The notes below the pieces were generated by a model. It did no database searches, was not told the DNA's origin, and was given only the letters and a program-made list of their open reading frames with translations. Shown here one piece after another: positions 10,311 to 60,364 of a stretch of 60,364 nucleotides of DNA (the first letter of the stretch is position 1; each line of letters begins with the position of its first letter). The stretch spans positions 1-60,364 of IMG/VR virus record IMGVR_UViG_3300030328_003717; one strand, given 5' to 3'. Origin of the DNA: a virus. Its lineage: Duplodnaviria; Caudoviricetes. The position numbers were made by a program, and so were the translations under genes.

Positions 10311-11216
10311 ATGCCAGAGCATAAACTAAACTTAAATCCTGCGGAAGAGCTTGTACAGATTGACGATACAGGCCCTGAAGTAGACGTTGAAATAGACGAA
10401 GACCAAAATGCAAATTTTGAAGCACAGCCTGTAAAAGAAAATATTTTAGAGGCAATGCCTGAAGAAAAAGAAAAAGTAGAAGACGAACACGAAGAATACA
10501 GCAAAGGTGTAAAGAAACGAATCGGCAAACTCACTGCAAAACTGCGCGAAGCAGAACGTAGAGAAGAAGCAGCGACTAAGTATGCTCAAAATGTACATAA
10601 AGAAAACGCAACACTTAAACAACAAAAACAAAACACAGACGGAAACTATATTCTTTCTGAAGCAAATAGAATTACGGCAGAAACAGAGGCTACAAAAACA
10701 CTATTACAAAAAGCGAACGAAGAACAAAATATAGATGCGCAAGTACAAGCGCAACAAAAATTGGCATCTTTGGCGGTAGAGGCTCAACGCGTACAAGCAC
10801 TCAACCAAAGAAGAACTCAACAGCCTGTACAACAGCAACAAGATTTTGTACAACAGCAACAAGAGGCTCCTATGAAACCCGATCCCAGAGCAGAAGCTTG
10901 GGCAGAAGACAACTCTTGGTTTGGTGATGATCGTGCAATGACCATTACTTCTTTCGCCATTCACGAAGATTTGTTGAACGAAGGGTTTGACGCGACAAGC
11001 GATGAGTATTATAGTGAGATAGATAAACGGATTCGAGATGAGTTTCCCCATAGATTTGGAGAAACATCTCAGCAAAACCGTCCCGCTCAAGCGGTAGCGC
11101 CAGCTAAACGCAGCGCTAAAAGTGGGCGCAAGTCTGTGAGACTCACACCTTCACAGGTAGCAATAGCGAAGAAGCTAGGTGTGCCTTTAAATGAATACGC
11201 GAAATATGTTGAATAA
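10311..11216 (+). CDS. Probable capsid scaffolding protein
   Basis: Acidic N-terminus, long coiled coil, C-terminal LTPSQVAIAKKLGVPLNEYAKY; upstream of MCP. Confidence 0.7.
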   Translation: MPEHKLNLNPAEELVQIDDTGPEVDVEIDEDQNANFEAQPVKENILEAMPEEKEKVEDEHEEYSKGVKKRIGKLTAKLREAERREEAATKYAQNVHKENATLKQQKQNTDGNYILSEANRITAETEATKTLLQKANEEQNIDAQVQAQQKLASLAVEAQRVQALNQRRTQQPVQQQQDFVQQQQEAPMKPDPRAEAWAEDNSWFGDDRAMTITSFAIHEDLLNEGFDATSDEYYSEIDKRIRDEFPHRFGETSQQNRPAQAVAPAKRSAKSGRKSVRLTPSQVAIAKKLGVPLNEYAKYVE

Positions 11217-41564: not shown

Positions 41565-41588
41565 AGTATATTTTAAGATATATCTTGA
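41565..41588 (-). promoter_or_regulatory. -10 box plus palindromic operator upstream of the RHH gene
   Basis: TATACT (41570-41565) adjacent to perfect palindrome AAGATATATCTT (41575-41586). Confidence 0.55.
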
Positions 41589-43450: not shown

Positions 43451-44988
43451 ATAACGTACCTATAATAATCATCTTGGGCTTTTATAAAATACAAGTTCTC
43501 AACTGTACGCGTAACTGCGACATAGAACTGTCTGTGAAGCCCATCGGGTTGTAGTGTTGAAGACTGTTTTTGTGCTTTCGATAAATCAAGATACACAGCC
43601 ACATTCTCCGCTTCACCGCCTTTTGCTTGGTGTATCGTAGATATAACAATGCGCGGTTCTCCATGTAGGTCTTCTTTGTTATTCATTGCTTTTTCAATAA
43701 ATCCTTTTCGTTCTACGTCTATGCTTTTGTCAAATAGTTCTTTCCATGTTTTGTCTAATATTTCTTCTTTTAAACCATAGTTGTCCATGGCTTCGTCTAA
43801 AGTTACTTTGTGTCCCAGCTCTTTGTCTTGTCCCACCTTACTTATAAACCCTCTTTTTACACCCTGTTTTCCTAAGTAATAATACAAATCATCTAGCTCT
43901 GATAAAGTGACCGGCTCGGTTTTTATTTTTTCCCAAGTTTCAATAGCTGAAATCATTCTTAAAGGAATGTACCTGTAGTGGTTGTGAGCAAAAGGATAGC
44001 CGTTGTCTATTAAATACTTTCTAATGTTGTATCCTTTTGATGTGTCGGTCAACATGTAATCACAAGAAGCCATAATCAACCACTCTCCTTTTTCCAAAGG
44101 CAACGTATCTATTGAAGAAACGTTATTGACACTTCCTGGTTCTTCTCTTGGCTTATATTCTTTTGGTTCCCTAGAGACTATTCTCTCTGATATTCTTTTT
44201 GCAATCGGATGCACAGTTCTTGGTATCCTATAGGACTGATTTAGCACGATTTTATTTCCCTCATAGTTTACAAACCTTTCAGGCCTAGCTCCGTTCCATT
44301 CATAAATGGCTTGGTCATCGTCTCCAGCAATAAAAGTTCTCTCCGTTGTGCTCGCTAGTTTGTCTACCAAACGCCAGTTCAGCTCCGCCAAATCTTGTGC
44401 TTCGTCTACAATTAAAAGGTCTAGTGGTGGTGGTGTGCCGTCTTCTAAAAAACTTACAATCATATCGGCAAAAGAAAACAACACAGGTGTTCGAGACAAC
44501 CTAAACTCTTCCCAAGCTTCTGATAACGGTTCCAACATGTGTGGTACAACACCTTTTCTTTGAGACGCGTCTAAAGACAGTCGCTCTTCTTTTAAAGACC
44601 GACAGTTTGTTTTTGCTCGTTCTATGATGTCGAAATACGGATCTTGGACCACGGACCTAATTGCTCTTGCGTTGTTTGGATATTCTTTGGTTAACTTAAA
44701 TTCGTATTCTTTTAAAAAATCAAACACGTCTCTGCCACCCACCACATGCGATATGCCCATGACTCTTTTGCAAAACGCGTGGCTTGTGCAGAAGTAAGGC
44801 ATCTCTTCAAAAGTTAAACCAAACTTGACGTGTGCTCTGTTCTTTCCTTCTTCAGCTGCTTTTTTAGAAAAAGATATAAAAGCAATTCGCTCTGGTGCAA
44901 CTCCCTCGTCTATGCTTTTCTCTATAATATTTAGCAAAGTTGTTGTCTTCCCTGTTCCTGGAGGACCATAATATTTTGTTACTCCCAT
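43447..44988 (-). CDS. UvrD/Rep-like SF1 helicase
   Basis: GPPGTGKT, VDEAQD, GDDDQAIY, QSYR, STIHQAKGGE, YVAVTR. Confidence 0.92.
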   Translation of the reverse strand: MGVTKYYGPPGTGKTTTLLNIIEKSIDEGVAPERIAFISFSKKAAEEGKNRAHVKFGLTFEEMPYFCTSHAFCKRVMGISHVVGGRDVFDFLKEYEFKLTKEYPNNARAIRSVVQDPYFDIIERAKTNCRSLKEERLSLDASQRKGVVPHMLEPLSEAWEEFRLSRTPVLFSFADMIVSFLEDGTPPPLDLLIVDEAQDLAELNWRLVDKLASTTERTFIAGDDDQAIYEWNGARPERFVNYEGNKIVLNQSYRIPRTVHPIAKRISERIVSREPKEYKPREEPGSVNNVSSIDTLPLEKGEWLIMASCDYMLTDTSKGYNIRKYLIDNGYPFAHNHYRYIPLRMISAIETWEKIKTEPVTLSELDDLYYYLGKQGVKRGFISKVGQDKELGHKVTLDEAMDNYGLKEEILDKTWKELFDKSIDVERKGFIEKAMNNKEDLHGEPRIVISTIHQAKGGEAENVAVYLDLSKAQKQSSTLQPDGLHRQFYVAVTRTVENLYFIKAQDDYYRYVI

Positions 44989-46568
44989 TCTTTGTTCTCC
45001 GTTTCTAGTCTAAAATCATCTAAAGACACAGCGTCTTCATTTATCTCTCTAACATCCATGATCCAAACCTTTTTGTTTCCAACAGCCTTGTCAACCCATT
45101 TAGATGTGTTGATGCCTCCCATTTCTTTTAACTGTGTAAACACCTCTGCTTCTTTAATGTTCCTCATCTTCTTAAACTCTTGTATAAAGATGACTGCATC
45201 CCTACCTGTAAACCACCACTCTTTAATGCCTTCTTCTTCGTGTCTATACACGCCACCAGAAACCAAAGCCATACGAGAAGAGGACTCTGATATTCTGCAA
45301 AACTCATATATTGCGTCTTTTAACACTCCTCGTTTTGTCATGTCAGAAGGAACATCCACAATCTGCACTTCCTGTAGCCATGCGTTAAGTTGCGCAACCC
45401 AGTCTGATTTCTTTTTATCGGGCGGACATATATTTAAAACCTCCATACATTTTTGTTGATACATAGAAAAGTTATGAAGCTGTTTTGTTTCTAAAACAAT
45501 TGTTTGACCATCAATGTCTAAATGCCAAAGAGGTGGATCAGTCATGTATTTTCTAAGACCACCATAAACAGGTTCTCTTTGTGATGCGTCTATGCCATGT
45601 CTTTTGGTTATACAAATACCGCTCTGGCAAAAACTTTTTAATGGGTCTTTGCCGCACTGATATTTGTAATCCGTTTTTTCTAAACTTTGTATGATTGAGT
45701 TAAGCTCGCTGTGAGACAGAGCGTTTGTGCAAGCTGTTTTGTTTACTTCCTGTAGTTTGTCTTTCCACTGCTCGCCTTCAGGGTAAACCTTTCTTAAAAA
45801 TACTCCGTAGTTCAACATTGCGTTATTTCTTGTGCCTTCAGGCACGCCGTTAAGTTTCATGTGAACCAAACAAGGAGGCGCCTCGTCCCACAAACCGTCT
45901 CCGTTTAATTGTTTCTTTCTGCTCTTTTTTATTGCAACAAACTTATCTAGGTCTTCTTCACTAATTGCTCTTCTTTTTACAATCCTTACAAACTCCTCAA
46001 TGCTTAAAGCGTCTCCTTTTGAGTTCAGAGCGTATCTAGTAGTATCGTCTCCAGAAAAATACGGCATGTTTAACCAATTTCCTGTTTGTTTTTGTTGAGG
46101 CAACTGCTTTGACCATTCATATTGTTTAGGAAATATCTCATCGCCTGTACGGCCCATTGCTGCCGCTATCTCTTCTAGCTTGTTTTGAAACTTAAACGCG
46201 GGTATGGGTTCTTTAGTGAACATAAAAAGATGCACCCCGCCTGATTTTGTCATGCAGGGTACAAGGGGCAGTTGCATTTCACTGATTGTCTTTAGAATTT
46301 GCTTGGTGTTGATAGGATATTCGTCCACATCAATACACCCCCAAGAGCATTTTTCATCATCTGTTAAAGGAATAATTCCTATTGATACCTCTCCGGCAAC
46401 GTGTTTTTGCCAAAGCTCTGTTGTAACTGGTTGGTGCAGAGTTTTCCCTCTGCCTTCTTTTTTAATTCCTTTTGCTGTGTTCTTTTGCTTTCCTGTTATC
46501 TCGTAAATTCCGTGTGCTCTAGTTAAACCAGAGAAAATGCGCATCAAAATTTCTGCTTTTTCTTTCAC
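44979..46568 (-). CDS. Primase-polymerase-like protein (AEP plus PriCT-like)
   Basis: WGCIDVD, TKSGGVH, NMPY, PPC...EGTRNN. Confidence 0.75.
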   Translation of the reverse strand: MKEKAEILMRIFSGLTRAHGIYEITGKQKNTAKGIKKEGRGKTLHQPVTTELWQKHVAGEVSIGIIPLTDDEKCSWGCIDVDEYPINTKQILKTISEMQLPLVPCMTKSGGVHLFMFTKEPIPAFKFQNKLEEIAAAMGRTGDEIFPKQYEWSKQLPQQKQTGNWLNMPYFSGDDTTRYALNSKGDALSIEEFVRIVKRRAISEEDLDKFVAIKKSRKKQLNGDGLWDEAPPCLVHMKLNGVPEGTRNNAMLNYGVFLRKVYPEGEQWKDKLQEVNKTACTNALSHSELNSIIQSLEKTDYKYQCGKDPLKSFCQSGICITKRHGIDASQREPVYGGLRKYMTDPPLWHLDIDGQTIVLETKQLHNFSMYQQKCMEVLNICPPDKKKSDWVAQLNAWLQEVQIVDVPSDMTKRGVLKDAIYEFCRISESSSRMALVSGGVYRHEEEGIKEWWFTGRDAVIFIQEFKKMRNIKEAEVFTQLKEMGGINTSKWVDKAVGNKKVWIMDVREINEDAVSLDDFRLETENKEWE

Positions 46569-46669
46569 ATAGCTTCCTTGTCTCTAGGAAAACCCCTCTG
46601 AAACCAATTTGGACTCGGTTATTGTTTATTTGTCTATACACAATACACAGAGGGGCATCCTTTTTTCGT

Positions 46670-47464
46670 TTAGTCTTCCCAATCCTTTTTGTTACCGGAC
46701 TGTTCCAACGCAGGACTGCTACCAGATTTGCTAGGGCCACCTAGCTGATCCAAAGCACCAGAAGATCCGAATTTAGCAAACTCTTCTGCTTCTGCAAAAA
46801 GGTCTCTTTCTTTCTCTTCTAACACCCGCTCCTGCATGATGTGATAACTGTACCAGCTACCTCTATCATTGGACTCGACTTGTGTGGATAGACGGTACCA
46901 ATGAGAGTAAGCCGGAGGCGTGAACATGCCTTTTGCTCCTTTCATTTTTGTACCTTGGATCATCGTGTTCCACGCACGCGAATGCTTCAGTTGCGATCCT
47001 GTCATGTTAATGACGCATTTTTGTGGCACGTCATCAACGAGCGCGAAGCCGTAGTGGTTTGAGGTTACGGTCAATTGGGTTTCCCCATTTGGTGTAACCA
47101 TACGCCCTTGGCTGTCGCGTGTGCATCGGTTCAAAAGGTCAGAATCTGCTGGGTGCACGCCTTTGAAGCCTCCACCTTTCTCACGCAAGCCCCACTCAAC
47201 GAGTGTTTTGCTATAGTAAGAAGGTAAAAACAACAAGCCGTCATCGCCACTAATAGCGACACTGCTTCCACTGTAGTACAAATCACCTTCTTCCGCGTCA
47301 GCAAGATAATCACTAGAGTTCTTTTGTCTCTGTGGAGACAAAGCCTGGATTATGCTGATTCTTGGAGTACGAAGGTCTTCCGTACTGAGATCACCGAAAC
47401 CTTTTTCTTCGATGTTTTCAAATAGGGACGTTATAGATGTCCCATTACTTTTCTTCGTTGCCAT
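46670..47464 (-). CDS. Probable ssDNA-binding/recombination protein
   Basis: P.ISIIQALSP...EG; aromatic beta core, acidic tail; position in replication block. Confidence 0.55.
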   Translation of the reverse strand: MATKKSNGTSITSLFENIEEKGFGDLSTEDLRTPRISIIQALSPQRQKNSSDYLADAEEGDLYYSGSSVAISGDDGLLFLPSYYSKTLVEWGLREKGGGFKGVHPADSDLLNRCTRDSQGRMVTPNGETQLTVTSNHYGFALVDDVPQKCVINMTGSQLKHSRAWNTMIQGTKMKGAKGMFTPPAYSHWYRLSTQVESNDRGSWYSYHIMQERVLEEKERDLFAEAEEFAKFGSSGALDQLGGPSKSGSSPALEQSGNKKDWED

Positions 47465-47486
47465 ATCTTATTTCCTCTTTATTTAT

Positions 47487-48050
47487 TCAACGGTTTATTT
47501 TTGTGCGTTTGCCTGCATACACGGAGAAACTTTTCTGTGTGTCTACATCAAACGATGGGTCCCCCGATTCTATTCTTTCTTTTACGAAAGCACGGAGGGT
47601 GCTTGGATGAACTGCTTCTTTCGTTGCTGGCATGTGGCCTTGTTTCGTAAGCAGCTCCGCCAATTCGGAAGCGATCTCATCCTCACCTTGTCCAAAAGTA
47701 AGCGTCAAAGTGTTCTTTATTAGATCACCGTGTCCGTTTTCTCTTAGCCAGTTGTGAGCTGTCTCGACGTTGCGAGCCGTGATGCGAGCGCTGTAAAATG
47801 GTTCTGCTGATATGCTAGAGCCGTCTGATAGTTTCAATTCAGAAACGCCGTACTCTGCAAGTTTATTTGGAATGGTTTGTTCACTGAGTTCCCTAGACTG
47901 CTCTTTGAGTCGTCTCAGTTTTTCTTCAGTGTTGCCGATTTGTCCTTCAAGTGTAAGTAAGTCTTTGCAAAGTTTACTCAGACTTTCGATGTCTGTTTCT
48001 TCGATGCTTTCTACTTGTTTTCTTATGCTCTCTTCAAATAACTCTTTCAT
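47487..48050 (-). CDS. Replication-block hypothetical protein
   Basis: Coiled coil, WLRENGHGDLIKN...VHPSTLRAFVKE. Confidence 0.75.
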   Translation of the reverse strand: MKELFEESIRKQVESIEETDIESLSKLCKDLLTLEGQIGNTEEKLRRLKEQSRELSEQTIPNKLAEYGVSELKLSDGSSISAEPFYSARITARNVETAHNWLRENGHGDLIKNTLTLTFGQGEDEIASELAELLTKQGHMPATKEAVHPSTLRAFVKERIESGDPSFDVDTQKSFSVYAGKRTKINR

Positions 48051-48346
48051 TATTTTTTACCTCGTTCTATTGGTGTTACGTTATTTTTTTCTTCTTTCTT
48101 CGGTTCGTAGTTGATCTCAAAGTCAGGCACAAAAAATATAAGGCCTTCGTTGTTAACCTCTACAACTTCAACACTATGTTTTGGTTGATCCAATATAGTG
48201 TACACATATCTTAATGATTCATCCAAACTGTTGAACGGACCTAAAGATTCGCCGAAACTTTGATGAGGAGTGAAGTTAATAAACCATTCATTTTTTCTGT
48301 TGCTACAGATTTCTAAAATGATTTTTTTCTTTCGTTCTCTCGTCAT
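48050..48346 (-). CDS. Hypothetical protein
   Basis: First gene of the - strand block; coupled. Confidence 0.65.
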   Translation of the reverse strand: MTRERKKKIILEICSNRKNEWFINFTPHQSFGESLGPFNSLDESLRYVYTILDQPKHSVEVVEVNNEGLIFFVPDFEINYEPKKEEKNNVTPIERGKK

Positions 48347-48348
48347 GG

Positions 48349-48376
48349 TTGACTAATCTTATACTATCAGTAGAAT
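48349..48376 (+). promoter_or_regulatory. Promoter in divergent control region with inverted TATAAGAT box
   Basis: TTGACT-AATCTTATACTATCAG-TAGAAT. Confidence 0.55.
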
Positions 48377-48412
48377 AGATTGCAAGAAATATTTTAACGA
48401 ATAACGAAGGAT

Positions 48413-49870
48413 ATGAAAATAATGGATATAGAAGCTTATAATTACAAAACCGAACCCTACGACCACCAACGAGAAACTTTAGCCAAGAGTGCTCACAAAA
48501 GTCTTTACGCACTTTTCCTTGAGATGGGCCTTGGCAAATCAAAAATCTTATTAGATAACGCCGGTATGCTCTTCGAGCAAGGAAAAATTACTGGACTTCT
48601 TATTGTATCACCAAAAGGTAATTTAAGAAACTGGGACGTGCATGAGGTCAACAAACATTTACCGGACCACATACAAAGAAACGTTTTGGTTTGGCAGCCT
48701 AATCATACTAAACAATGGCTAAAGGACTACAAAGAAATGGTTGAAGGCAACAGCGACGGAACACTAAACATATTTTTAGTCAATGTCGAAGCGTTTGCTA
48801 CTGTTAAAGCGTGTAAGTTTGTAGAAGAGTTTATGGTTGTTCACGATGTAATGATGGCTATTGATGAATCCACGACAATAAAAAATCCGAAAGCTAAAAG
48901 AACAAAACATTTAATCAAGTTGGCACCTCTTGCTGACTACCGAAGAATCCTTACCGGATTTCCAATCACAAAAGCCCCTCTAGATTTGTACAGCCAGTGT
49001 TATTTTCTGTCGCCTAACTTACTCGGCTTCAGTAGTTATTATGCGTTCAGCGCACGTTATGCAATCACCCAGGCACGTCGCATGGGATCGCACAGCTTTC
49101 AACAGATCGTAGGGTTTCAAAGGCTTGAAGAACTGCAAGAATCCATCAAAGACTTCTCGATTCGTAAGACGAAGGACCAATGCCTAGACCTTCCTCCGAA
49201 AGTCTACACAAAGCGGTATGTTGAACTGACTGATGAACAGAAAAAAGCGTATGCAACCATGAAACAAAAAGCATTGATGGTTTTAGACAATGAAGTATTC
49301 AGCACTATGAATGTGTTGACACAGATTATGCGGTTGCAACAAGTCGTTGCTGGTAGTTTGCGTAACGAAGATGGAGAAACGATTGTTCTTAAAAACAATC
49401 GAGTGCGTACTGTGCTAGATCTATTAGAAGAAACGTCTGATAAAGCTGTGATTTTTGCTGTGTTTCAAACCGACATTCAACAATTAGAAAAAGCCATAGC
49501 GGAGAAGTTTGGTGAAAACTCTGTTGCGTCTTATTATGGCAAAACACCACAGGACGAAAGACAAAGAATTATTGATAAGTTTCAAGATCCAGAGTCTGAG
49601 TTGCGCTACTTCATTTCCAATCCGCAAACAGGTGGCCGAGGTATTACTTTAACCGAAGCCGGTACCATGATATTTTATTCTAATTCCTATGATTTAGAAC
49701 TCAGGGTGCAAGCCGAGGATCGGATTCACAGAATAGGACAAGAAAAAAGTTGCACATACATCGACCTTGTATCAGAAAATACGGTTGATGAAAAAATACT
49801 TCAAAATCTTTTAAGCAAAGTTAAAATCAGCAATGAGATTCTTGGAGAAATAAGAAATTGGTTTAAATAA
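48413..49870 (+). CDS. SNF2-family helicase
   Basis: EMGLGKS, IDEST, LTGFP, GRGITLTEA, QAEDRIHRIGQ. Confidence 0.92.
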   Translation: MKIMDIEAYNYKTEPYDHQRETLAKSAHKSLYALFLEMGLGKSKILLDNAGMLFEQGKITGLLIVSPKGNLRNWDVHEVNKHLPDHIQRNVLVWQPNHTKQWLKDYKEMVEGNSDGTLNIFLVNVEAFATVKACKFVEEFMVVHDVMMAIDESTTIKNPKAKRTKHLIKLAPLADYRRILTGFPITKAPLDLYSQCYFLSPNLLGFSSYYAFSARYAITQARRMGSHSFQQIVGFQRLEELQESIKDFSIRKTKDQCLDLPPKVYTKRYVELTDEQKKAYATMKQKALMVLDNEVFSTMNVLTQIMRLQQVVAGSLRNEDGETIVLKNNRVRTVLDLLEETSDKAVIFAVFQTDIQQLEKAIAEKFGENSVASYYGKTPQDERQRIIDKFQDPESELRYFISNPQTGGRGITLTEAGTMIFYSNSYDLELRVQAEDRIHRIGQEKSCTYIDLVSENTVDEKILQNLLSKVKISNEILGEIRNWFK

Positions 49871-49882
49871 AAGGCTATAATA

Positions 49883-50146
49883 ATGAGTACAGACACAGTA
49901 AAAGAATATCTAGATCACCCCATGACACAAACAACCGTAGACAAAATTGTCGCAGACATGATTCCAATAATACGAAATCATTTTGACGAAGAAGACGTAA
50001 GTCCCTGGGAAGTAGCCACTGCTTTGGTTGTGCTGTTGTCTTCTGTTACAAACACCATGGATCTTGATCGAGAGACAATGGTCGAACTAGCCACGTTTAT
50101 TATGCAAACAACGGCGGACCAAGGACTTTTTTCAAACCGACATTAA
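49883..50146 (+). CDS. Hypothetical protein
   Basis: Fills the gap in the + strand run. Confidence 0.6.
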   Translation: MSTDTVKEYLDHPMTQTTVDKIVADMIPIIRNHFDEEDVSPWEVATALVVLLSSVTNTMDLDRETMVELATFIMQTTADQGLFSNRH

Positions 50147-50161
50147 GTGTATGATAGGGGT

Positions 50162-53100
50162 ATGGCGACGACCCCCAAAGATACAAGCCTTTCTTCGGCT
50201 TTTCGATACGCAATAGATCAACCCCTGGAGAACATGGCAACCACTTTTCAAGCCCTTGGTATGAAGGATTGGGAAAAGTTTATGCGTGACATTGTTGAAG
50301 AACCTGAAAACTATGAAGCTGCGGCCGGAGAGTTTATCAATGCCCAGGGCGAAGGGTTTAATTGGGAGTATTTTCCAAGAGCTATATTTGAACAAGCGGG
50401 ACAAATCGCTGGAAGTTTAGCGACCAGAGCCGGTGGTGCGGCAATTGGTGCCACAGCGGGGCCTGTCAGCATGGCGGTTGGGGCTTTGTTGGGACCTGCT
50501 TTGTTTGAAGCGGTGCAGATTGCTGGACCTGTTGCATTGGAAAGGGCAAAAAACGAAGGTAGAGAAGAGCCGAATTGGGAAGATTGGACAGGCGCGCTGG
50601 GCACAGCGGCAGCCAGTGGTGTGTTAAACGCGGTTGGTATTAAAAACGTTGGGGTTCTAAACAGCATTGGTAAAGGCACTCTTAAACAAGCGGGGAAACA
50701 AACAGTTAAAGCCGGTGTTGCTGAAGGATCGACTGAAGGGCTGCAAGGAGCAACGGAACAAATTGGCGGTTCAGCGCTCACGGCCCAGGGACTACAGTTT
50801 GATCCCAAAGCAGCCGTTGGTGAAGGTTTGTTGGGAGCCGGTGCTGGAACAGGCACACAGATTGGTACACAAACTGTAGGGCAAATTGCTCCTCCAACTC
50901 AAGATGGAACGCTGGGCGCTAATCTTTTTACAAAACTTTTTGGAAAGAAAAAAGACACACAAGAAGTTGTTGAAGAGGTTGTTGAAGAAACTCCCGTTGT
51001 ATCACAAGACGAAGAAAGACAAGCTAGAATAGAACAAGCTCAAATTAATGCGAGAGTTACAGCAGAGTCTTTGTACCCAAATTTAATAAAAGCGTATGAG
51101 CCTTCTGAAATAGATTTTTTAGAAATAGGGGCTACGCAAATGTCCAATGGAAACGTTGATGCACAAAGCTTTGACGAAATTTTTCCTAAAATACTTTCTA
51201 CAGCGGAACAGTTTGGCATAAAAGAAGAGGATGTTGTTCCTTTCGTTAAAAGAATAATGGGTAAAGTCTCAACAGACGACGCTTATCTTATAGTACCAGA
51301 ATACACAGACGATGAGCGTTTGGTTGGACTGGATGAAAACGCAATTTTAGATTTTGTTGCAGAATCAGCTAAAGGTTATTACGACGAAGTGAAGTCTTCA
51401 AGACCTGAAATGTACCTTAATAAGCCAAAAATTAAAGGAAAAGACATTTACAACAAACCTCCTTTGTTAAAGGTTGAAGGAATATCCCAAGACATACACC
51501 AGTTTGATCCTGATTTTCCTAGAGGCGCCACCCCTCCGCTTGGAATGGTAAAGCCAAGGTTTAGCGAAGAACAATCGGACATTTTATTGAACTCAAAACA
51601 AGGTATGGTTGAGCCAACTTTGTTTTCATACAGTAAATTTTTGTCTCCAGAAAATCCTTTGTTAGCCAATTTTCCTAAAAAAGGAGTGCCAGCCGACGAA
51701 GCGTTAAAGCTTTTAAACATTGAACTTGCACCAGGAGAAGGTAAAAAATCTCACGGTATGTTTAAACCAGCAAAAAATAAAAATTCTTTGTTTGCTACGA
51801 GAGCCATAGAAGGAAAGATAGCTGATTTTCTTTTAAACAAAGGAAAAGAAACAGTTACCAAACAAGATATTATAGATAGATATGTAAACCACTTGTCTGC
51901 GTTTAACGGTATTTTGTTGTCGGATGCTGGTAGGACGGTTGACAGAGACGACTACACTTCTTTTGCTATTCCAAACTTAGATGAAAGGTTTGATAGAGAC
52001 ACTTATTTTGGAAACAGGTATTTGGAAATTGTTAAAGAGGAGTTAGAAAAAGTTGATGCACCTAGAACACTTATAGATACTTTAAATGAAGACCCAGACG
52101 ATGTTGAAACCAGAATACTGGAATTTCCTGCTCAACAAGATATGGAAATGCAAAACAAGTTAGATGATGCAAAAGAAAAAGCCGACGAAAGAATGGCTGG
52201 AATAGTTTCTCTCAATTCCATGTTCTTTCCTTCTGAACAATCGAAAGGAAGACCGATTGAGCCTTATACACCAAAACACGGCGCAAGTATGCAAACATTT
52301 AGCGAGTTTCAAGGAAACGGTACACCTGAACTAAGAAGATTGGGCGAAGACATAGAGGTTGTTTTAAACTATGATGCGGAACTTGATCCAGAAGGAGAAG
52401 CCAGCTTGTCTCAGCTTCCTCCTGACATAGATTTAACCGCTCCTATGAACCAACAGCTTAGAAGAATTGCTACTTACCAAGAAGAAATAAAACGACGCGA
52501 TCCTGATTACTATTCTTTTAAAGACAGCACGCACCATTGGACTGGAGATGGGACATTGGCGTGGATGCGTGGCGGTATGTTTAGCCATGGGCCAGATGGT
52601 AAATACAAAAACACCAAAGGCGTAAACATGACCGAAGTACAGTCGGGAGCGCATGGTTGGGTGCAAAGCACAAGGCCTTCGTACAGCGACTTTATTTACA
52701 AAAGCAAGGCTGGTGGAACCAAACTTACGAGAAAAGAGTTTGACAAACTAGAAAACGGTTACATGTTTGACAGAGCTATTGATCAACTTCAAGCTGTTGC
52801 GTTTCCAAGCGCTCCTGGAGCGGCTTTATTTTCTTTGTTGCCAGACTTTAATAGAAACGTGTTTTTAAAACCAAGCGCAGTGCGTGATCTCAATGTTGGT
52901 CCTTCTGCGTATGTTTCGGTTCTTAAAGAGATTCTTCCTAGTAATATTTATACGAATTTAAAAAACTCAGGTGAGTTGCGTGAAAATATGAAAAAAGCTA
53001 GTGACATGTATGCAGACTATGGCAGAAGTATAGCAGAAGCCGAATTTACACGTTCCCGAACACCAGCTTTAGGTACTACCACCATAGGTGGAATGTTAAG

Positions 53101-53902
53101 ACAAACATTGGGAGTGGTTCCAACCAAAGAACAGGTCGACACTTTGACTGAAGATTGGATTGGAGACGGAAACTTTACATACAAACCTGGTTCTCTTTTA
53201 AAACTTGGTTTAATGAGCCGTGATGATATTGGAGATCCAGAAATCGGTGATTTGGGGCAAAGAATACAAACAAGGTTGAATAAAATTCAAGACACTGCCG
53301 CAGAATGGAACAAAAAAGATGTTGCTGCGTTGTACAAACCGTATTTTGAAGAGGCCATGGTACACAGCCCAGCGCTTTTTGAGTTATATAAAAGAGCGTC
53401 TGATGAGAGTAACCTACCAAATTTAAACGAGTTTGCTGACCTTAAATTAATGGAGTCTCAAGCCACGGCGACGGGTCGTGGTGTAACTCCTGATATGCCT
53501 TTAAAGAAAGACTGGCCTAGGGCTATGGTTCAACTTACGATTGTGAAAAGTCTCATGCACGATCCCAATGTGACTCACCTTTATATTCCTACTGCAAGTA
53601 AGGGAGGCGGTCCAACAAGTCCTTACTTAGACGCTTTTAATGAAGCAGAACAAATATCTGAACAGTTTGATTTGGATTTTAAAAAGATATTTGATTTTAT
53701 AGGAGAGGTGAAAGATCCAGAAACAGGACGGACAGTGGAAAAACCCGTAGATGTTTTTGCATTGGAAATCGCACCGCTTCGAGAAATGCTTATCGAAGGT
53801 GGTGGATTTGAAGGTAAGATGCAGAAAGGCGGTTTGGTCAAAGGCTCTTCACCTGTGCATGAAGTTCTAAACCTAGGCGATTACGGACGTAGGTTTATTT
53901 AA
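50162..53902 (+). CDS. Large (about 1246 aa) internal-virion-like/polyvalent protein
   Basis: Gly/Ala-rich N-terminus like 34978; C-terminal MQKGGLV; ATG 50162 preferred over GTG 50147. Confidence 0.65.
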   Translation: MATTPKDTSLSSAFRYAIDQPLENMATTFQALGMKDWEKFMRDIVEEPENYEAAAGEFINAQGEGFNWEYFPRAIFEQAGQIAGSLATRAGGAAIGATAGPVSMAVGALLGPALFEAVQIAGPVALERAKNEGREEPNWEDWTGALGTAAASGVLNAVGIKNVGVLNSIGKGTLKQAGKQTVKAGVAEGSTEGLQGATEQIGGSALTAQGLQFDPKAAVGEGLLGAGAGTGTQIGTQTVGQIAPPTQDGTLGANLFTKLFGKKKDTQEVVEEVVEETPVVSQDEERQARIEQAQINARVTAESLYPNLIKAYEPSEIDFLEIGATQMSNGNVDAQSFDEIFPKILSTAEQFGIKEEDVVPFVKRIMGKVSTDDAYLIVPEYTDDERLVGLDENAILDFVAESAKGYYDEVKSSRPEMYLNKPKIKGKDIYNKPPLLKVEGISQDIHQFDPDFPRGATPPLGMVKPRFSEEQSDILLNSKQGMVEPTLFSYSKFLSPENPLLANFPKKGVPADEALKLLNIELAPGEGKKSHGMFKPAKNKNSLFATRAIEGKIADFLLNKGKETVTKQDIIDRYVNHLSAFNGILLSDAGRTVDRDDYTSFAIPNLDERFDRDTYFGNRYLEIVKEELEKVDAPRTLIDTLNEDPDDVETRILEFPAQQDMEMQNKLDDAKEKADERMAGIVSLNSMFFPSEQSKGRPIEPYTPKHGASMQTFSEFQGNGTPELRRLGEDIEVVLNYDAELDPEGEASLSQLPPDIDLTAPMNQQLRRIATYQEEIKRRDPDYYSFKDSTHHWTGDGTLAWMRGGMFSHGPDGKYKNTKGVNMTEVQSGAHGWVQSTRPSYSDFIYKSKAGGTKLTRKEFDKLENGYMFDRAIDQLQAVAFPSAPGAALFSLLPDFNRNVFLKPSAVRDLNVGPSAYVSVLKEILPSNIYTNLKNSGELRENMKKASDMYADYGRSIAEAEFTRSRTPALGTTTIGGMLRQTLGVVPTKEQVDTLTEDWIGDGNFTYKPGSLLKLGLMSRDDIGDPEIGDLGQRIQTRLNKIQDTAAEWNKKDVAALYKPYFEEAMVHSPALFELYKRASDESNLPNLNEFADLKLMESQATATGRGVTPDMPLKKDWPRAMVQLTIVKSLMHDPNVTHLYIPTASKGGGPTSPYLDAFNEAEQISEQFDLDFKKIFDFIGEVKDPETGRTVEKPVDVFALEIAPLREMLIEGGGFEGKMQKGGLVKGSSPVHEVLNLGDYGRRFI

Positions 53903-54358: not shown

Positions 54359-54810
54359 TGTGGATAAAAATACGTCGAGTAGGAATTGTACAATTTGACG
54401 TTCGTTGAGTTTTTTAGGGACGAAGGACCAAGGACTTTTGGTCATTTCCCACAGTTTTCTTACTGTTTCCATGTGGTGCACTCCAATTTATAGGCATAAA
54501 GGTTTAATTTCTAGGGGTTTTGTGTTGATTTATCCACCGCACCTCAAAAAAACGTAGAAGTTCACTAAAAGTTAGGTAAAAATCGAGGTATGGTACGCCC
54601 GAAACCCTTTAAAATCAAGGGGTCTTGTTTTCCTATATAGACAACTACAACCTAACCTGAACTTCTGTTTTTGAGATTTTACAAAAGACTAATCAGAATT
54701 TTTTTTCAAAAAGTGAGGTGCGGAGGTGCGTTTTGGACGAAAGCCTTTGTTTATAGGGGTTTTCACCTAACCTGAGTGAGGTGCGGTGGAGGTGCGGTGG
54801 GTGCGGTGAA
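54359..54810. other. Putative replication origin or packaging control region
   Basis: ORF-free; DnaA box at 54359; AGGTNNGGT iteron-like repeats in both orientations; 14-bp inverted repeat. Confidence 0.5.
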
Positions 54811-54851: not shown

Positions 54852-55361
54852 ATGCCAAAAGGAACATCAGGAAACATAAAAGGCCGAAACGATAAACACT
54901 TGACCAACAAGCAAATCAAATTTGCGAAAGAGTTTGTTTACAACGACGGATCTAAAACACAAACCGAGTGCGCTATTGCAGCCGGGTATAGCAAAGAAAG
55001 TGCTCATGTCAGAGCATCAGAACTTCTAAACCCACAAAAATATCCTGTTGTAGTTAGGTATATAAGAGAACTCCAAGCTGAAGTAGATCGTAAATACGAA
55101 GTTACATTCGGTAGGCACGTTAGAAAATTAGCAGATATTCGAGATCAGGCCTTAGAAAAAGGTAATTTGACTGCTGCTGTGTCAGCTGAAGTGCAAAGAG
55201 GAAGAGCTGCGGGACTTTATGTTGAGCGTAAGGAGATCCGTACAGGCTCTTTGGATTCTTTATCTGAAACTGAAATCAAGAAAAGAATTAAGGACCTGTT
55301 GTCAGACTACAAGCCTCTCCTGGAAGCAGAAGAGGCTGTGTTTACTGAAGGTTCTGATTAG
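54852..55361 (+). CDS. terS: Terminase small subunit
   Basis: LTNKQIKFAKEFV...TECAIAAGYS...ASELL HTH pattern; A..AE..RG.A.GLY. Confidence 0.8.
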   Translation: MPKGTSGNIKGRNDKHLTNKQIKFAKEFVYNDGSKTQTECAIAAGYSKESAHVRASELLNPQKYPVVVRYIRELQAEVDRKYEVTFGRHVRKLADIRDQALEKGNLTAAVSAEVQRGRAAGLYVERKEIRTGSLDSLSETEIKKRIKDLLSDYKPLLEAEEAVFTEGSD

Positions 55362-57926: not shown

Positions 57927-58028
57927 AATTAACTCCCTTAGTTAAGTTTGTTTTTACAAGTAGTGCCAACCGAAGATGACACTACCCGTCGTTTATCCGT
58001 GTAGAAAATTATTTCTCTACACTACTCA

Positions 58029-58056
58029 AGTCTATCAAACCTATCTTATATATCAA
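58029..58056 (-). promoter_or_regulatory. sigma70-type promoter with TATAAGAT box
   Basis: TTGATA-TATAAGATAGGTTTGA-TAGACT; near-copy of the 2040-2068 promoter. Confidence 0.65.
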
Positions 58057-58092
58057 GTTCTTTTTTGTTTATTCTGATACACTCGACTTACT

Positions 58093-58524
58093 GTGGCTAA
58101 AAAAGAATCTTTATTTTGGAAAAAAGTCAAAACGAATTTGAAGTCGTTTCGGCTGATACGCATTGAGTCATGGGTTAATCTAGGTATTCCTGATGTATTG
58201 GGGGTGTCCCCAGCTGGCGTGTACTTTACTGCTGAACTTAAAGTAACCCAAAGTAACAAAGTTTCGCTATCGCCGCACCAGATCGCATATCACGAAGAGA
58301 GAGCAGACGCACCCGCTTTTATCCTGGCCCAGGCCCTCCGCCCTTCTACCCCCAGAAAATTTACGATGCACCTCTATCATGCGTCCCAGGTCGAGTCGTT
58401 GGTCGTCCATGGGCTAAAAACAGAGCCTATATGGACCGGGGACCAAGGTTCTTGGGCCGAGCTCGAAGAAACATGGACCAAAGCCCTTAGAAATCCAATC
58501 AGCCGCTTCTTTATTCTGCCGTAA
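58093..58524 (+). CDS. VRR-NUC/Holliday-junction resolvase-like nuclease
   Basis: ES.FW...RIES...GIPD...ELKV...LSPHQIAYH. Confidence 0.75.
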   Translation: MAKKESLFWKKVKTNLKSFRLIRIESWVNLGIPDVLGVSPAGVYFTAELKVTQSNKVSLSPHQIAYHEERADAPAFILAQALRPSTPRKFTMHLYHASQVESLVVHGLKTEPIWTGDQGSWAELEETWTKALRNPISRFFILP

Positions 58525-58569
58525 CCTGTGGATAACTAACCACAAACTGTTAATAACCTGTGGATAACT
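58522..58569. promoter_or_regulatory. Two perfect DnaA boxes
   Basis: TGTGGATAA at 58527 and 58559 within a 16-bp direct repeat TAACCTGTGGATAACT. Confidence 0.6.
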
Positions 58570-58810
58570 GCTTGCTTGTCTGTTCTGGCAAAAGAGCTGC
58601 CGTCTGGGCCAGCCTGGCAGCAGGATCCGCCGTGCTTGCTTGTCTGTTCTGACAAAAGAGCTGCCGTCCCTGGGCCGCTGCTGGTGCATCTAACGTAGCT
58701 ATTGGTGCTTGCTTGTCTGTTCTGACAAGCGATCGGCAGCCCGCGGTCTGCTAACGCATCTGTGCTTGCTTGTCTGTTCTGACAAGAGATCGGCAGCCCG
58801 TCTGGTGCAG
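58569..58810 (+). repeat. Four tandem TGCTTGCTTGTCTGTTCTGRCAA repeats
   Basis: Starts at 58569, 58633, 58706, 58763; GC-rich, mutually similar linkers. Confidence 0.95.
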
Positions 58811-58829
58811 CGGGTTGTAAAAACAAGTG

Positions 58830-58858
58830 TTGTATATCTATGGGATATTTCGTATAAT
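58830..58858 (+). promoter_or_regulatory. sigma70-type promoter with TATGGGAT box
   Basis: TTGTAT-ATCTATGGGATATTTCG-TATAAT. Confidence 0.7.
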
Positions 58859-58887
58859 GTATATTCTTTAATAAACAGGGAGAAACA

Positions 58888-59274
58888 ATGAAAACTTATA
58901 ACGTAATTATAGACATGACTGAGAGCTTTCTATGTCCAATAGAGGCCGAGTCAGAAGAAAAAGCCTTAGAAAAAGCTGAAGGTGTTAACCCCTCTGAAAA
59001 TAATGTTCCATACTACAGCGAAGCAAACGTGATCGGTGTTCGTGGTGATGATTATATTATTAATCAGTCGCGAAACTATGTGCAAGCTGCAGAAGAAAGA
59101 GGTTATAAAGATACAGATACTTTTGAGTTGTTCAAAAAAGATTTAGACAAAGTGTTAGAAAAACATTATCCAGACACAGACTATCAATGGGATTTTTTAG
59201 ATGAGCATTGGATTGAATTAAAGGTGTGGCTTAGAGAGCCAATAGAGGAGAAAAGCGATGAGCATAACTGTTGA
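58888..59274 (+). CDS. Hypothetical early protein
   Basis: GGGAG RBS; IEAESEEKALEKA motif. Confidence 0.7.
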   Translation: MKTYNVIIDMTESFLCPIEAESEEKALEKAEGVNPSENNVPYYSEANVIGVRGDDYIINQSRNYVQAAEERGYKDTDTFELFKKDLDKVLEKHYPDTDYQWDFLDEHWIELKVWLREPIEEKSDEHNC

Positions 59275-59434
59275 TAAAGATAATGGTGACGTTTTAGTGG
59301 TAGAAACTGTATGTGACTTACTTGAGCTTTTAAGTAGATATGAAATATGGGTTAGGGTAGCGGAAGATACAAGCCTTTTTAAATTTATAGATACAGATAA
59401 AGCATTAAAATTGGAGGTGTCTGATGATGAATAG
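59258..59434 (+). CDS. 58-aa hypothetical protein, paralog of 2-154
   Basis: GAGGAG RBS; MSITVDKDNGDVLVVETVCDLL... Confidence 0.7.
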   Translation: MSITVDKDNGDVLVVETVCDLLELLSRYEIWVRVAEDTSLFKFIDTDKALKLEVSDDE

Positions 59435-59570
59435 ATATTATGTTGAATTTATAAATGACGGCTTCGGTAATGGAAAAAGGGTTTGCATTTATGTATACGC
59501 ACACAGTCCAGAGCAAGTGAAAGAAATGTTCAATGAATATATTTTAATTGCTTGTGATCCAACGGATTAA
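59424..59570 (+). CDS. 48-aa hypothetical protein
   Basis: GGAGG RBS; overlaps the previous stop. Confidence 0.55.
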   Translation: MMNRYYVEFINDGFGNGKRVCIYVYAHSPEQVKEMFNEYILIACDPTD

Positions 59571-59597
59571 TTAAATTAAAAAGACAGGAGTTTAACA

Positions 59598-60296
59598 ATG
59601 AGCTACAAACTACTATCAGTAAACAGCAATCCTAAGATTGATAAGAGCAATGAGATACAAGGTGAGTATTGGTCGTGTATTCTACATATGCGACCTATTA
59701 ATACTAAGATATGTCCGTATCAAAATATTGCAGGTTGTAAGGATGCTTGTTTAAATACAGCAGGATTAGGCGGTGTATATCCTAGTATTCAAAATGCTAG
59801 GCAGAGAAAGACTGATCTATTCTTAAATGATAGGGCTGAGTTTATGTCTCAACTAGTGTTGGATATTATAAAGTTTATCGGTGCTTGTGATCGTAAAGGT
59901 AAGAAGCCTTGTATTAGATTGAATGGCACGAGTGATATACAATGGGAAAAGATTATGGTTGAGTGTGGCCAAAATATATTTGAGATGTTTCCACAGGTGC
60001 AGTTCTATGACTACACTAAGATACCTACAAGAAAAGTAGATCACATATCTAACTATCATTTAACGTGGAGCTATAGTGAAGCTGCAGAAAAGTATGCTAA
60101 GTTGTTTGATAGTGTGCCTTATAATAAAGCTGTGGTGTTCCGTAATAAAGACTTGCCTTCTACCTTCAAAGGTGTTAAGGTTATAGATGGAGACAAGCAC
60201 GATATGAGATTTTTAGATGAGACTAATGTAGTAGTAGGTCTGAAAGCAAAAGGTAAAGCCAAGTTAGATGACTCAGGCTTTGTAATTGATAATTAA
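59598..60296 (+). CDS. GP88-like phage protein with CPx5Cx3C motif
   Basis: CPYQNIAGCKDACL...RLNGTSDI.WE...QFYDYTK...NYHLTWS. Confidence 0.6.
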   Translation: MSYKLLSVNSNPKIDKSNEIQGEYWSCILHMRPINTKICPYQNIAGCKDACLNTAGLGGVYPSIQNARQRKTDLFLNDRAEFMSQLVLDIIKFIGACDRKGKKPCIRLNGTSDIQWEKIMVECGQNIFEMFPQVQFYDYTKIPTRKVDHISNYHLTWSYSEAAEKYAKLFDSVPYNKAVVFRNKDLPSTFKGVKVIDGDKHDMRFLDETNVVVGLKAKGKAKLDDSGFVIDN

Positions 60297-60314
60297 TGTA
60301 GGAGAAAGAGAGTT

Positions 60315-60364
60315 ATGTCACATTGGAGTAAAGATGCTATCGTTGATAGAGTAGAGAGTGAACT
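60315..60364 (+). CDS. 5' part of a hypothetical protein (truncated)
   Basis: Purine-rich RBS region, ATG 60315, open to the window end. Confidence 0.4.
   Translation, partial: MSHWSKDAIVDRVESE

Follow-up and report, generated by a model that had tools for sequence, protein, structure and literature searches.

A strand-polar family of non-coding repeats in the variable early region of an HTVC023P-like marine podovirus

Described repeat systems and the present locus

PeSLs, which as reported consist of a promoter and a terminator co-oriented with the gene that they serve, mediate modular shuffling in the hyperplastic regions of T4-type phages (PMC2839356; PMC4122927). The pre-early region of phage T5 is described as carrying untranslated repeats that are better conserved than its ORFs, together with paired DnaA boxes (10.1101/866236). 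According to the published account of phage LLS, most of its 23 Chi sites lie at the genome's right end, 20 of them in the active orientation, with the left end carrying the terminase genes, while for one Pseudomonas phage the count is 32 sites versus 0 (PMC12315714). Here, we analyzed a window of 60,364 nucleotides, which is the entire ~60 kb IMG/VR phage record, and found that four repeat units in it are the proximal block of a lineage-specific, non-coding, strand-polar array that extends from the end of a nuclease gene to the HNH/terminase genes.

Iteron-type origins with DnaA boxes, such as those of P1, lambda and P4 (ori/crr), combine direct repeats with an AT-rich stretch and have extra repeat clusters kilobases off. 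The present locus likewise pairs direct repeats with DnaA boxes and an AT-rich stretch and has further repeat clusters at kilobase distances, but its repeats are irregularly and widely spaced, no initiator gene is adjacent, and most clades are without the boxes. Gene cassettes are separated by intergenic repeats, polar or partly palindromic, in integron attC arrays and bacterial REP/BIME elements. Our repeats also lie between cassettes, which have their own promoter and stand in either orientation, whereas neither an integrase nor a REP-associated transposase was recognised, one and the same gene occurs both ways between units, and the repeat is absent from the bacterial genomes scanned. The stoperators of mycobacteriophage L5 are asymmetric repressor sites oriented with the direction of transcription, while the orientation of our unit follows the genome backbone and not local transcription.

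With PeSLs, as these are described, the units share the character of short conserved non-coding modules in a hyperplastic early region, flanking small ORFan cassettes with sigma-70 promoters and terminators, and a putative link to indels and swaps between relatives (PMC2839356; PMC4122927). Unlike a PeSL, however, the unit has no -10 element, and thus no promoter of its own, and is not a terminator, with no stable terminating stem-loop; moreover, it keeps a backbone-wide polarity regardless of gene orientation, forms tandem arrays, and belongs to a non-T4 podovirus lineage. The likeness to the first-step-transfer region of T5 lies in gene-free early repeats that are better conserved than the ORFs, in direct and inverted repeats, and in DnaA boxes, as far as that region is documented (10.1101/866236), but the sequences show no similarity, the boxes here form a set of three co-oriented sites confined to one clade, and no two-step entry or fixed ends are known for the group. 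Chi sites of the LLS-type lambdoid phages are comparable as a short T/G-rich motif on the terminase-coding strand, a few kilobases upstream of terminase, with nearly all copies in one orientation and independent of gene direction (PMC12315714). Chi as described there is a host-defined 8-mer scattered through genes, whereas our repeat is a spacer-restricted 25-nt unit with subtypes.

The repeat units and their surroundings in the window

The first-pass annotation had drawn a comparison with T4-type phages, but PHROG and Pfam annotation and the TerL relatives group the phage with the HTVC023P-like marine podoviruses. To our knowledge, nothing is known about how the early host-takeover regions of HTVC023P-type phages are organised and diversify. 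Among known marine viral groups, they have been reported to be the most abundant (10.1101/2019.12.14.876532). Positions 1-118 (+ strand) duplicate 59286-59403 with 3 mismatches and are a second copy of the 5' part of a small gene (59258-59434); they mark an assembly break within the early region, and both window ends are therefore part of one early region. One DNA contig from public runs connects 59404 to window position 119 onward, and the early region is contiguous in relatives. The stretch is partly present, as contigs, in 20 public runs labelled marine, seawater or plankton metagenomes; contigs from two RNA runs cover the widely conserved GP88 gene alone (59598-60364), and DNA contigs from public runs break at units. 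Neither the duplication nor the DnaA boxes described below had been mentioned in the first-pass annotation.

Exactly seven significant copies of the 25-nt unit occur in the window, every one on the + strand. Four of them stand in tandem (58569-58789), and the other three are at 1041, 1586 and 1643. The four-unit array that had been noted earlier was recovered by a search with TGCTTGCTTGTCTGTTCTGRCAA, which matched with 0 mismatches at 58569, 58633, 58706 and 58763, giving the same start-to-start periods of 64, 73 and 57 nt, and the two tail subtypes were as previously described. At up to 3 mismatches, TGCTTGCTTGTCTGTTCTGRCAA had 5 matches, all on the + strand, the fifth being the copy at 1041 (1 mismatch), against a chance expectation of 0.01 and with 0/100 shuffles reaching 5. 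The 12-mer core GCTTGCTTGTCT occurred 7 times on the + strand (1042, 1586, 1644, 58570, 58634, 58707 and 58764) and 0 times on the - strand, and a profile that combined 138 distinct units, all taken from other contigs, found exactly these 7 sites, all on the + strand at E <= 3e-6. Within the array, the profile scored unit 1 (58569-58595) at E 3.6e-7, unit 2 (58633-58659) at 5.5e-8, unit 3 (58706-58728) at 3e-6 and unit 4 (58763-58789) at 4.8e-7, all on the + strand. A coding repeat was rejected, as the periods disrupt any reading frame.

The three dispersed copies are each preceded by an upstream arm. A solitary unit at 1041-1067 follows an inverted half-copy at 1032-1040 (together 1032-1067, + strand), which pairs with 1050-1058 and leaves the invariant core as a 9-nt loop (-6.7 kcal/mol, z -2.2). 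The unit at 1586-1611, with an imperfect arm at 1578-1585 (together 1578-1611, + strand), lies behind a terminator at 1520-1547, and the unit at 1643-1669, with a perfect 9-bp arm at 1634-1642 (together 1634-1669, + strand; hairpin -8.2 kcal/mol, z -2.35), lies ahead of a bidirectional terminator at 1701-1727. An upstream arm that pairs at 7/10 positions or more is found in only 45 of 231 distinct units. Where the hairpin forms, matching changes occur on both arms, and three stem variants are found within the window. While these three copies bore out the earlier claim of further same-orientation units, a fourth one claimed at 2893 was not significant as a unit (E 7.5) and is the right arm of a perfect 18-bp inverted repeat (2853-2870/2887-2904). 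On the right, the variable region is bounded by this strandless feature (2853-2904; DNA fold -23.5 kcal/mol, z -8), which lies upstream of the HNH gene; it is built from a one-letter variant of the unit core, is followed by a terminator-like T-rich tail, and is kept in relatives. The TTGTC-N6-GACAA dyad attributed to the units is present in units 2-4 and at 1041, while unit 1 has GGCAA; the dyads in the window are weak as hairpins (z +1.0 to -2.8), and the dyad, lacking conservation across the family, is not a family feature.

The last backbone gene before the array (58093-58524, + strand) encodes a VRR-NUC/PD-(D/E)xK-type nuclease of 143 aa. Its N-terminal part aligns to PDB 4qbn_A 'Nuclease' (E 0.017) and has a PD...ELK motif, and a 56%-identical homologue is named 'Holliday junction resolvase' in one source. 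In relatives, the array follows this gene, which is always co-oriented with it. A DnaA-box cluster (58527-58567, + strand) adjoins unit 1, with perfect TGTGGATAA copies at 58527-58535 and 58559-58567 and a 2-mismatch copy at 58548-58556, in a single orientation and at spacings of 21 and 11 bp. The three boxes stand at identical offsets in 19/19 close relatives and in 0/22 loci of clades at 45-56% identity; these phased boxes are a clade-specific add-on.

A sigma-70-type early promoter behind unit 4, TTGTAT-17-TATAAT at 58830-58858 (+ strand), serves the genes from 58888 onward, and a second, TTGTAA-17-TATAAT at 1125-1153 (+ strand), lies behind the 1041 unit. At both places, AAGTGTTGTA is followed by a TATAAT box, in agreement with the first-pass annotation, and the reuse of a repeat-plus-promoter arrangement was borne out by a co-oriented core within 160 nt upstream in 24 of 47 distinct promoter sites. 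The promoters are separate from the unit, 37-143 nt downstream of the co-oriented core. The unit itself contains a -35-like TTGCTT/TTGTCT without a -10 element at 16-18 nt, and, in a single diverged clade, a real promoter draws its -35 from reverse copies of the unit.

Occurrence, polarity and variable cassettes in relatives

The unit pattern was found in 95 stretches from 53 IMG/VR contigs, a set ascertained on the unit itself. An independent set, collected through the nuclease protein, showed the unit in 19/19 close relatives (>=91% aa identity) with 79 forward and 0 reverse 12-mers; both sets contradict an absence of the unit from relatives, which had been named beforehand as telling against the element. 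At the loci of distant nuclease relatives (33-41% identity), the core 9-mer was absent in 23/23 and DnaA boxes occurred in 0/22, and HTVC023P and DSL-LC04 carry other tandem repeats in the terS-terL interval, without this unit. In five records of 42-84 kb, all matches fell within <=5.4 kb, and a reversed control pattern gave 0; the units are confined to the variable early region between the VRR-NUC-type nuclease gene and the HNH/terminase genes. Elsewhere in the window we found no top-strand excess of unit k-mers, whose bias flips with gene strand and is therefore compositional.

Conservation spans 25 nt, with subtypes. The 5' core GCTTGCTTG, followed by TGTTC/TTTTC, is kept across clades in which the neighbouring protein is 45-56% identical. 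The array of diverged clades begins at the stop codon of the nuclease gene, and its core has turned into (GCTT)n, with (GCTT)2-6 and one (TGCTTGT)6 form in other clades. Units are spaced 45-128 nt apart (105 distinct segments), and the spacers between them have common motifs such as CCCWGGG and GAGCTGCC.

Searches of sequence collections returned no known counterpart. Rfam at gathering thresholds gave 0 matches in the whole window; blastn against 50,697 cultured-phage records left 58000-59300 unmatched, with chance-level matches only (E up to 10) for 58520-58860; and a 23-nt pattern had 4 single matches in bacterial genomes (185,579 species, 596 Gb), about the estimated chance number, so that the scanned genomes contain no matching CRISPR array or repeat family. 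In the accessible portions of the papers returned by a full-text literature search on this phage group, we found no published account of such repeats. The repeat is a real cis-element family for which no description was found, and the earlier characterisation as undescribed thus holds for Rfam, for cultured phages by blastn and for the literature as searched. Minus-strand terminators were rejected, since a hairpin of <= -8 kcal/mol abutting a T tract occurred in 33.5% of real versus 25.8% of shuffled tails, and CCWGG did not stand out as a restriction-related signal (70 observed versus 64 expected genome-wide). Overall, the unit is not a promoter, terminator, Rfam RNA, tRNA (0 tRNA/tmRNA genes by ARAGORN), coding repeat, CRISPR mimic or host element.

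Within 18 early regions, 126 of 129 units lie in spacers, and 53 of the 87 spacers contain at least one unit and 34 none, as counted with crude gene calls (ORF plus ribosome-binding site) from which ORFs <90 aa overlapping a unit had been dropped beforehand as presumed spurious. GC-rich arrays create spurious ORFs, and a simple ORF-overlap test is uninformative. Along the gene strand, the mapped order is gene, terminator, units, next promoter. Relative to the genome backbone, 250 units are forward, 35 reverse and 6 unoriented, while among 140 unit blocks, by the same gene calls, the upstream neighbour gene is anti-oriented in 78 and co-oriented in 48, and the downstream one antisense in 82 and co-oriented in 41. 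The 8-mers of the 3' half occur forward:reverse at 53:0, 38:0 and 32:0. Unit polarity follows the backbone, not the genes.

Between the units stand self-contained cassettes of a sigma-70 promoter, small gene(s) and a terminator, in either orientation, while complete units keep one polarity. The g278 homologue has the window orientation in 15 contigs and is inverted in 21, and g1184 is found 8 times each way; a PDB sequence search with the g278 protein gave nothing useful. Both cassettes are flipped in place with gene order intact and differ in orientation by clade, and, as the inversions track clades, these counts may reflect as few as two events. Some relatives carry extra genes between identical flanks, and one (L125) is without the GP88 segment. 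Units thus sit where gene content and orientation differ between relatives, as had been proposed. Like PeSLs, they occupy a hyperplastic region, and the suggested link to gene-content breakpoints was present but modest: 60 of 338 distinct homology breakpoints fell within 10 nt of a unit against a null of 41.2 +/- 5.8 (maximum 64 in 1000 trials), a ~1.5-fold enrichment that could arise simply from units being conserved within spacers that evolve fast. Linking alone does not account for a core conserved across clades, for the positional subtypes or for the DnaA boxes standing in phase.

Candidate roles of the array

We give a probability of roughly one in three to the reading that a tandem DNA-level array was invaded by early-gene cassettes and that its units are PeSL-like recombination linkers with a top-strand recognition function. 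Such invasion would have occurred repeatedly, and the units would serve as homology linkers through which related co-infecting phages could gain, lose, duplicate and swap cassettes, while the inverted half-copies may supply short inverted homology for flipping a cassette in place. As the 5' core is kept across clades of 45-56% identity, the unit should also have a sequence-specific job, and it may be a DNA-level site, read on the top strand, for a DNA-binding or DNA-tracking factor.

The array could instead be an origin region, where the units would be iteron-like landing sites for an initiator or for the archaeo-eukaryotic-type primase of the phage, the dispersed copies would be secondary, and, in the window's clade, host DnaA would help by loading host DnaB. 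In its favor, the tandem direct repeats lie beside the three co-oriented DnaA boxes with their constant 21- and 11-bp spacing, the array is followed in the window's clade by an AT-rich promoter stretch, one AT-rich relative has four units at a 27-35 nt period, and PHROG and Pfam annotation recognised a primase of AEP type together with UvrD-like and SNF2 helicases, whereas no replicative helicase of DnaB type was recognised. Recognition of a T/G-rich template sequence by a phage AEP primase is documented (PMC8718748), which gives this role a precedent as reported there. We consider an origin unlikely, however, because all 22 loci of the 45-56% identity clades keep the array without DnaA boxes, with a terminator and a convergent gene after it in place of the AT-rich stretch. 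Furthermore, the spacing is irregular, with no regular helix-phasing of at least three direct repeats, the spacers are GC-rich, (GCTT)n expansions are hard to square with a fixed duplex binding site, PHROGs and Pfam recognised no initiator gene (the neighbour being the VRR-NUC-type nuclease), and the replication genes are ~8.5 kb away from the array.

Likewise unlikely is an RNA element, with units acting in + strand transcripts, where they would form a 3'-UTR array on the mRNA of the nuclease or would signal processing, stabilisation or antitermination in read-through transcripts. The first unit does abut the nuclease stop codon, starting between 1 nt before and 3 nt after its end in 20/21 diverged loci, with no terminator between, while only 45 nt with the DnaA boxes intervene in the window; the matching arm changes with three stem variants also fit this role, and tolerance of (GCUU)n would suit single-strand recognition. 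Most dispersed units, however, lie outside transcription units or antisense to their neighbours. RNAalifold on 25 aligned segments found no conserved structure (+ strand -4.9 kcal/mol, - strand ~0), mispairs in the hairpin stems showed no wobble strand bias (8 G-T and 8 A-C), and Rfam gave no match. Ahead of the nuclease gene, we saw neither a sigma-70-like promoter nor a ribosome-binding site, and we found no late-promoter motif common to the pre-nuclease region and other intergenic regions; behind a strong terminator, the HNH/late genes have a promoter-like site of their own.

Backbone-tied, gene-independent polarity would also be expected if the core were the recognition sequence of a host RecBCD/AddAB-type helicase-nuclease, with its copies concentrated on the top strand a little upstream of terminase, where an enzyme coming from a free genome end would be tamed before it reaches essential genes and early-region recombination would be stimulated. 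The units lie on the TerL coding strand a few kilobases upstream of HNH/TerL, the same geometry as reported for phage LLS (PMC12315714); the tract is T/G-rich, and a dose effect would fit the irregular spacing, the varying number of copies and the microsatellite-like way in which the core is reiterated. The literature cited here describes Chi as unknown for most Proteobacteria (10.1101/2020.08.13.249359). This reading is nevertheless rather improbable, given that conservation extends over 25 nt with subtypes, that units occur in spacers only, with no top-strand excess elsewhere in the genome, and that known Chi-family octamers were neither enriched nor polar in 18 early regions, with only GCTGGTG at 13:1. 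It would, moreover, need a genome end near HNH/TerL, yet the Terminase_2 small-subunit gene (54852) is on the opposite side of the array.

Control of DNA entry in the manner of T5 is more doubtful still: the early cassettes would enter first, and the array at their inner border, with the DnaA boxes in this clade, would pause or control transfer. T5 provides, as described, the precedent of conserved untranslated repeats with paired DnaA boxes (10.1101/866236), the densest block and the boxes lie exactly at the border between early cassettes and backbone, and the early region of 2.6-4.6 kb in 18 relatives makes up about 4-8% of a ~60 kb genome. But the T5 mechanism, a proposed injection stop signal, is itself unproven, the boxes are clade-specific, and nothing shows two-step entry or fixed ends, with all six IMG/VR records checked classed as 'linear', an uninformative class, and without end repeats. 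Lastly, a phage RNA polymerase promoter, CRISPR-repeat mimic, coding repeat, minus-strand terminator or borrowed host repeat is very improbable and largely refuted: the ~25-nt asymmetric motif recalls single-subunit RNA polymerase promoters and the repeat-spacer look recalls mini-CRISPR arrays, but the next gene is antisense twice as often as co-oriented (82 versus 41), no RNA polymerase was recognised in Pfam, PHROG and PDB searches, in which the 1251-aa and 1910-aa proteins had no match, the few bacterial matches were about as many as expected by chance and none was array-like, the periods break frame, and real tails hardly exceeded shuffled ones as terminators (33.5% versus 25.8%).

Against the cassette-invaded array with recombination linkers, a scan of 60 proteins recognised neither a recombinase nor an integrase. 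The backbone-locked polarity amid cassettes that stand either way is unusual for phage intergenic repeats and points to a strand-reading process over gene regulation. More tentatively, a machine moving in from the terminase-proximal genome end may read the unit on a single DNA strand, which would make the unit a new kind of cis-signal in phages; such a machine could be the DNA-entry apparatus, a unidirectional replisome or an end-processing nuclease of the host.

The repeat provides a sequence handle on the early region, marking the variable segment in metagenomic contigs and accounting for the assembly breaks there, and it gives rise to hypotheses, open to testing, about how cassettes are exchanged, how the phage is defended against host nucleases, and how replication or entry is controlled. 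If a strand-read track is indeed present, the whole early region would be a freely invertible field of early genes along a polar track that stays fixed. Such a track, whether Chi-like, entry-stop or priming, would be the first to be described among relatives of the most abundant marine phage group, and the sequence recognised by an enzyme from an uncultured host would come to light.

Repeat units of the window and their relatives

Searching the window with TGCTTGCTTGTCTGTTCTGRCAA returned five matches against 0.01 expected, four of them on the + strand within 58569-58858 and a fifth at 1041 with one mismatch, and none of 100 shuffles gave five or more. This bears out the first-pass annotation, which had described a four-unit array here with unit-to-unit periods of 64, 73 and 57 nt and a promoter-like box after the last unit and likewise after the unit at 1041; both boxes are present (58830-58858 and 1125-1153). 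All seven occurrences of the 12-mer core are on the + strand, and the same seven sites (E <= 3e-6), with no further significant one in the window, were recovered by a profile of 138 distinct units taken from other contigs. The additional copy claimed at 2893 was not upheld: it scores E 7.5 as a unit and belongs instead to a perfect inverted repeat of 18 bp, of which it forms the right arm and which is made from a one-letter variant of the core. An internal dyad, also claimed, is found in one subtype and is not a feature of the family.

The unit-to-unit spacers (for example window 58596-58632, 58660-58705 and 1068-1124) share secondary motifs: GAGCTGCC recurs, CCCWGGG occurs in roughly 60 of the 105 distinct spacers, while AAYRYAGCWRTTGGT lies directly ahead of the next unit or promoter. 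An upstream inverted half-copy accompanies 45 of 231 distinct units and leaves the invariant GCTTGCTT as the loop, with three stem variants of matching arms, all represented in the window. As G-T and A-C mispairs are equally frequent in these stems (8 each), no strand is favored. Hairpins of single units are weak, no conserved structure was found in the spacers and no Rfam family for the repeat; minus-strand terminators were not supported.

Beyond the window, a degenerate 23-nt unit pattern matched 95 stretches from 53 IMG/VR contigs, most of which have 2-13 copies, giving the family consensus T-GCTTGCTTGTCT-K-TTCT-RWCWAAAR with flanks that are not conserved. In five records of 42-84 kb, 10-mer matches were confined to at most 5.4 kb, and a reversed control pattern had no match in the same records. 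The pattern was not found in cultured phages, and 596 Gb of bacterial genomes yielded four single hits, approximately the estimated chance number.

An independent set of loci was collected via the 143-aa VRR-NUC-type protein encoded just upstream of the array (58093-58524), not via the unit. Among close relatives (at least 91% aa identity in this protein), the array is present in all 19 loci with downstream DNA, with 79 forward and no reverse 12-mers. Relatives at 45-56% identity carry (GCTT)2-6 GTTTGYTCTG forms, an AT-rich form whose four units repeat every 27-35 nt, or a (TGCTTGT)6 microsatellite, and in 20 of 21 of their loci the start of the first unit falls in the interval from 1 nt before to 3 nt after the stop-codon end. 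At 33-41% identity, the core 9-mer was absent from all 23 loci.

A group of DnaA boxes, absent from the first-pass annotation, adjoins unit 1: two perfect and one degenerate, spaced by 21 and 11 bp and all pointing the same way. All 19 close relatives have three co-oriented boxes at fixed offsets, two box-like sites occur in part of the 66-71% identity clade, and none of the 22 loci of the 45-56% clades has boxes. Being fixed in close relatives and absent from the 45-56% clades, the boxes are an add-on to an older array. Two more perfect TGTGGATAA boxes lie at 38862 and 54359 on the same strand as the pair at the array, which brings the window's total to four, all oriented alike, against about 0.5 estimated by chance.

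A marine phage related to the HTVC023P group

The window spans one IMG/VR virus record from end to end. The record is classed as linear and 96% complete, and the public runs in which the stretch occurs bear the labels marine, seawater or plankton metagenome. The phage has genes for a large terminase (TerL), portal, major head protein and GroES-like co-chaperonin, and a replication module (41573-50146) with family A DNA polymerase, AEP-type primase, UvrD-like helicase and SNF2 helicase. No replicative helicase of DnaB or SF3/SF4 type was recognised in this module, and the phage may depend on a host helicase. For two very large proteins of 1910 and 1251 aa (34978-40710 and 50147-53902), searches of PHROG, Pfam and PDB sequences gave no match. 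The phage is not T4-type, the closest cultured phages by TerL being 023Pt_psg01, Pelagibacter phages HTVC027P and HTVC023P, and DSL-LC04, at 55-61% aa identity.

HTVC023P has tandem repeats of its own in the same terS-terL interval, three of 33 nt directly after terS (7470-7568) and three of about 57 nt further along (9919-10090); early regions of this phage group may generally have polar repeat blocks. DSL-LC04 has a GGTGCGGT array of 10-bp period elsewhere in its early region (10915-10978). In the window, three copies of AGTGAGGTGCGGWGG (54712-54800) closely precede the Terminase_2 small-subunit gene (54852-55361) and may be a terminase or pac recognition site.

Window positions 1-118 are a second copy of 59286-59403 (3 mismatches), and the nuclease gene, array, cassettes, HNH gene and TerL are contiguous in relatives, so we place the window ends at an assembly break inside one early region. 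The duplicated sequence is the 5' part of a 58-aa gene, and its copies border a segment (59404-60364) that includes a GP88-family gene and is absent from a close relative (L125). Contig depths across this segment differ 2- to 5-fold in one run, which may reflect strain variants or a duplication collapsed by assembly.

Polarity independent of local transcription

Maps of the window ends and of related contigs L048-L050 show the order gene, terminator, unit(s), sigma-70 promoter, next gene. Our own crude gene calls, from which ORFs below 90 aa overlapping a unit had been removed beforehand, place 126 of 129 units of 18 early regions in spacers; of the 87 spacers, 53 contain a unit. With the backbone genes as reference, 250 units point forward and 35 are reversed, a further 6 being unoriented; 3'-half 8-mers are forward without exception (53:0, 38:0 and 32:0), and the reverse copies are mostly 5' half-copies in hairpins or beside inverted promoters.

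The neighboring genes do not follow this polarity: upstream of units 78 are antisense versus 48 co-oriented, and downstream 82 versus 41. The cassette of g278 (278-820) has the window orientation in 15 contigs and is inverted in 21, and that of g1184 is split 8 to 8, each flipped in place with gene order unchanged. Since the flips follow clades, at least two events are required, and perhaps no more. With neighbors mostly antisense and cassettes that flip, polarity is a property of the array or backbone and not of local transcription, which argues against the dispersed copies acting as promoters, operators, stoperator-like sites or mRNA elements. The 180-aa product of g278 has a zinc-finger motif of DnaJ type, CXXCXGXG (Pfam E 0.0017, which does not reach the cut-off), and its gene is present in most related contigs examined, in orientations that differ between clades.

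Two promoter regions were also noted. Between 2193 and the minus-strand gene 1831-2010, a divergent promoter region contains GCTGTTGTATAAAA twice (2077-2114), 19-20 nt apart; the copies form a palindrome and have the GTTGTA motif in common with the early promoters. The nuclease gene is preceded by a divergent region of 166 nt (57927-58092) with two hairpins. This region lacks both a sigma-70-like promoter and a ribosome-binding site for the gene's GTG start (58093), and the gene may be of a later class or one under different control.

Cassette exchange and candidate functions of the unit

The simplest account of the polarity, intergenic placement, stop-codon-flush start and variable copy number is a tandem array behind the VRR-NUC-type gene into which autonomous cassettes would have been inserted in either orientation, and through which they would be exchanged. 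Homology breakpoints fall within 10 nt of a unit in 60 of 338 distinct cases versus 41.2 +/- 5.8 expected (null maximum 64), so that recombination at the units is supported only modestly; individual junctions at window 1058, 1610 and 1645 add to this support. As far as this goes, the units resemble the promoter-early stem-loop (PeSL) cassettes of T4-type phages in serving cassette exchange, but they contain neither promoter nor terminator and therefore fall outside that system.

Because the core is conserved across clades, the unit probably has a further sequence-specific function. Candidates are a Chi-like cluster, whose geometry would be as in LLS-type lambdoid phages, an origin or priming zone, a T5-like entry-control region, and an RNA element. 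Of the undescribed cis-element system initially proposed, what stands, outside a T4-type setting, is a real, conserved and apparently undescribed family linked to cassette plasticity by a proposed mechanism. The family joins the intergenic repeat modules of phage hyperplastic regions and is unusual among them in its backbone-locked polarity.
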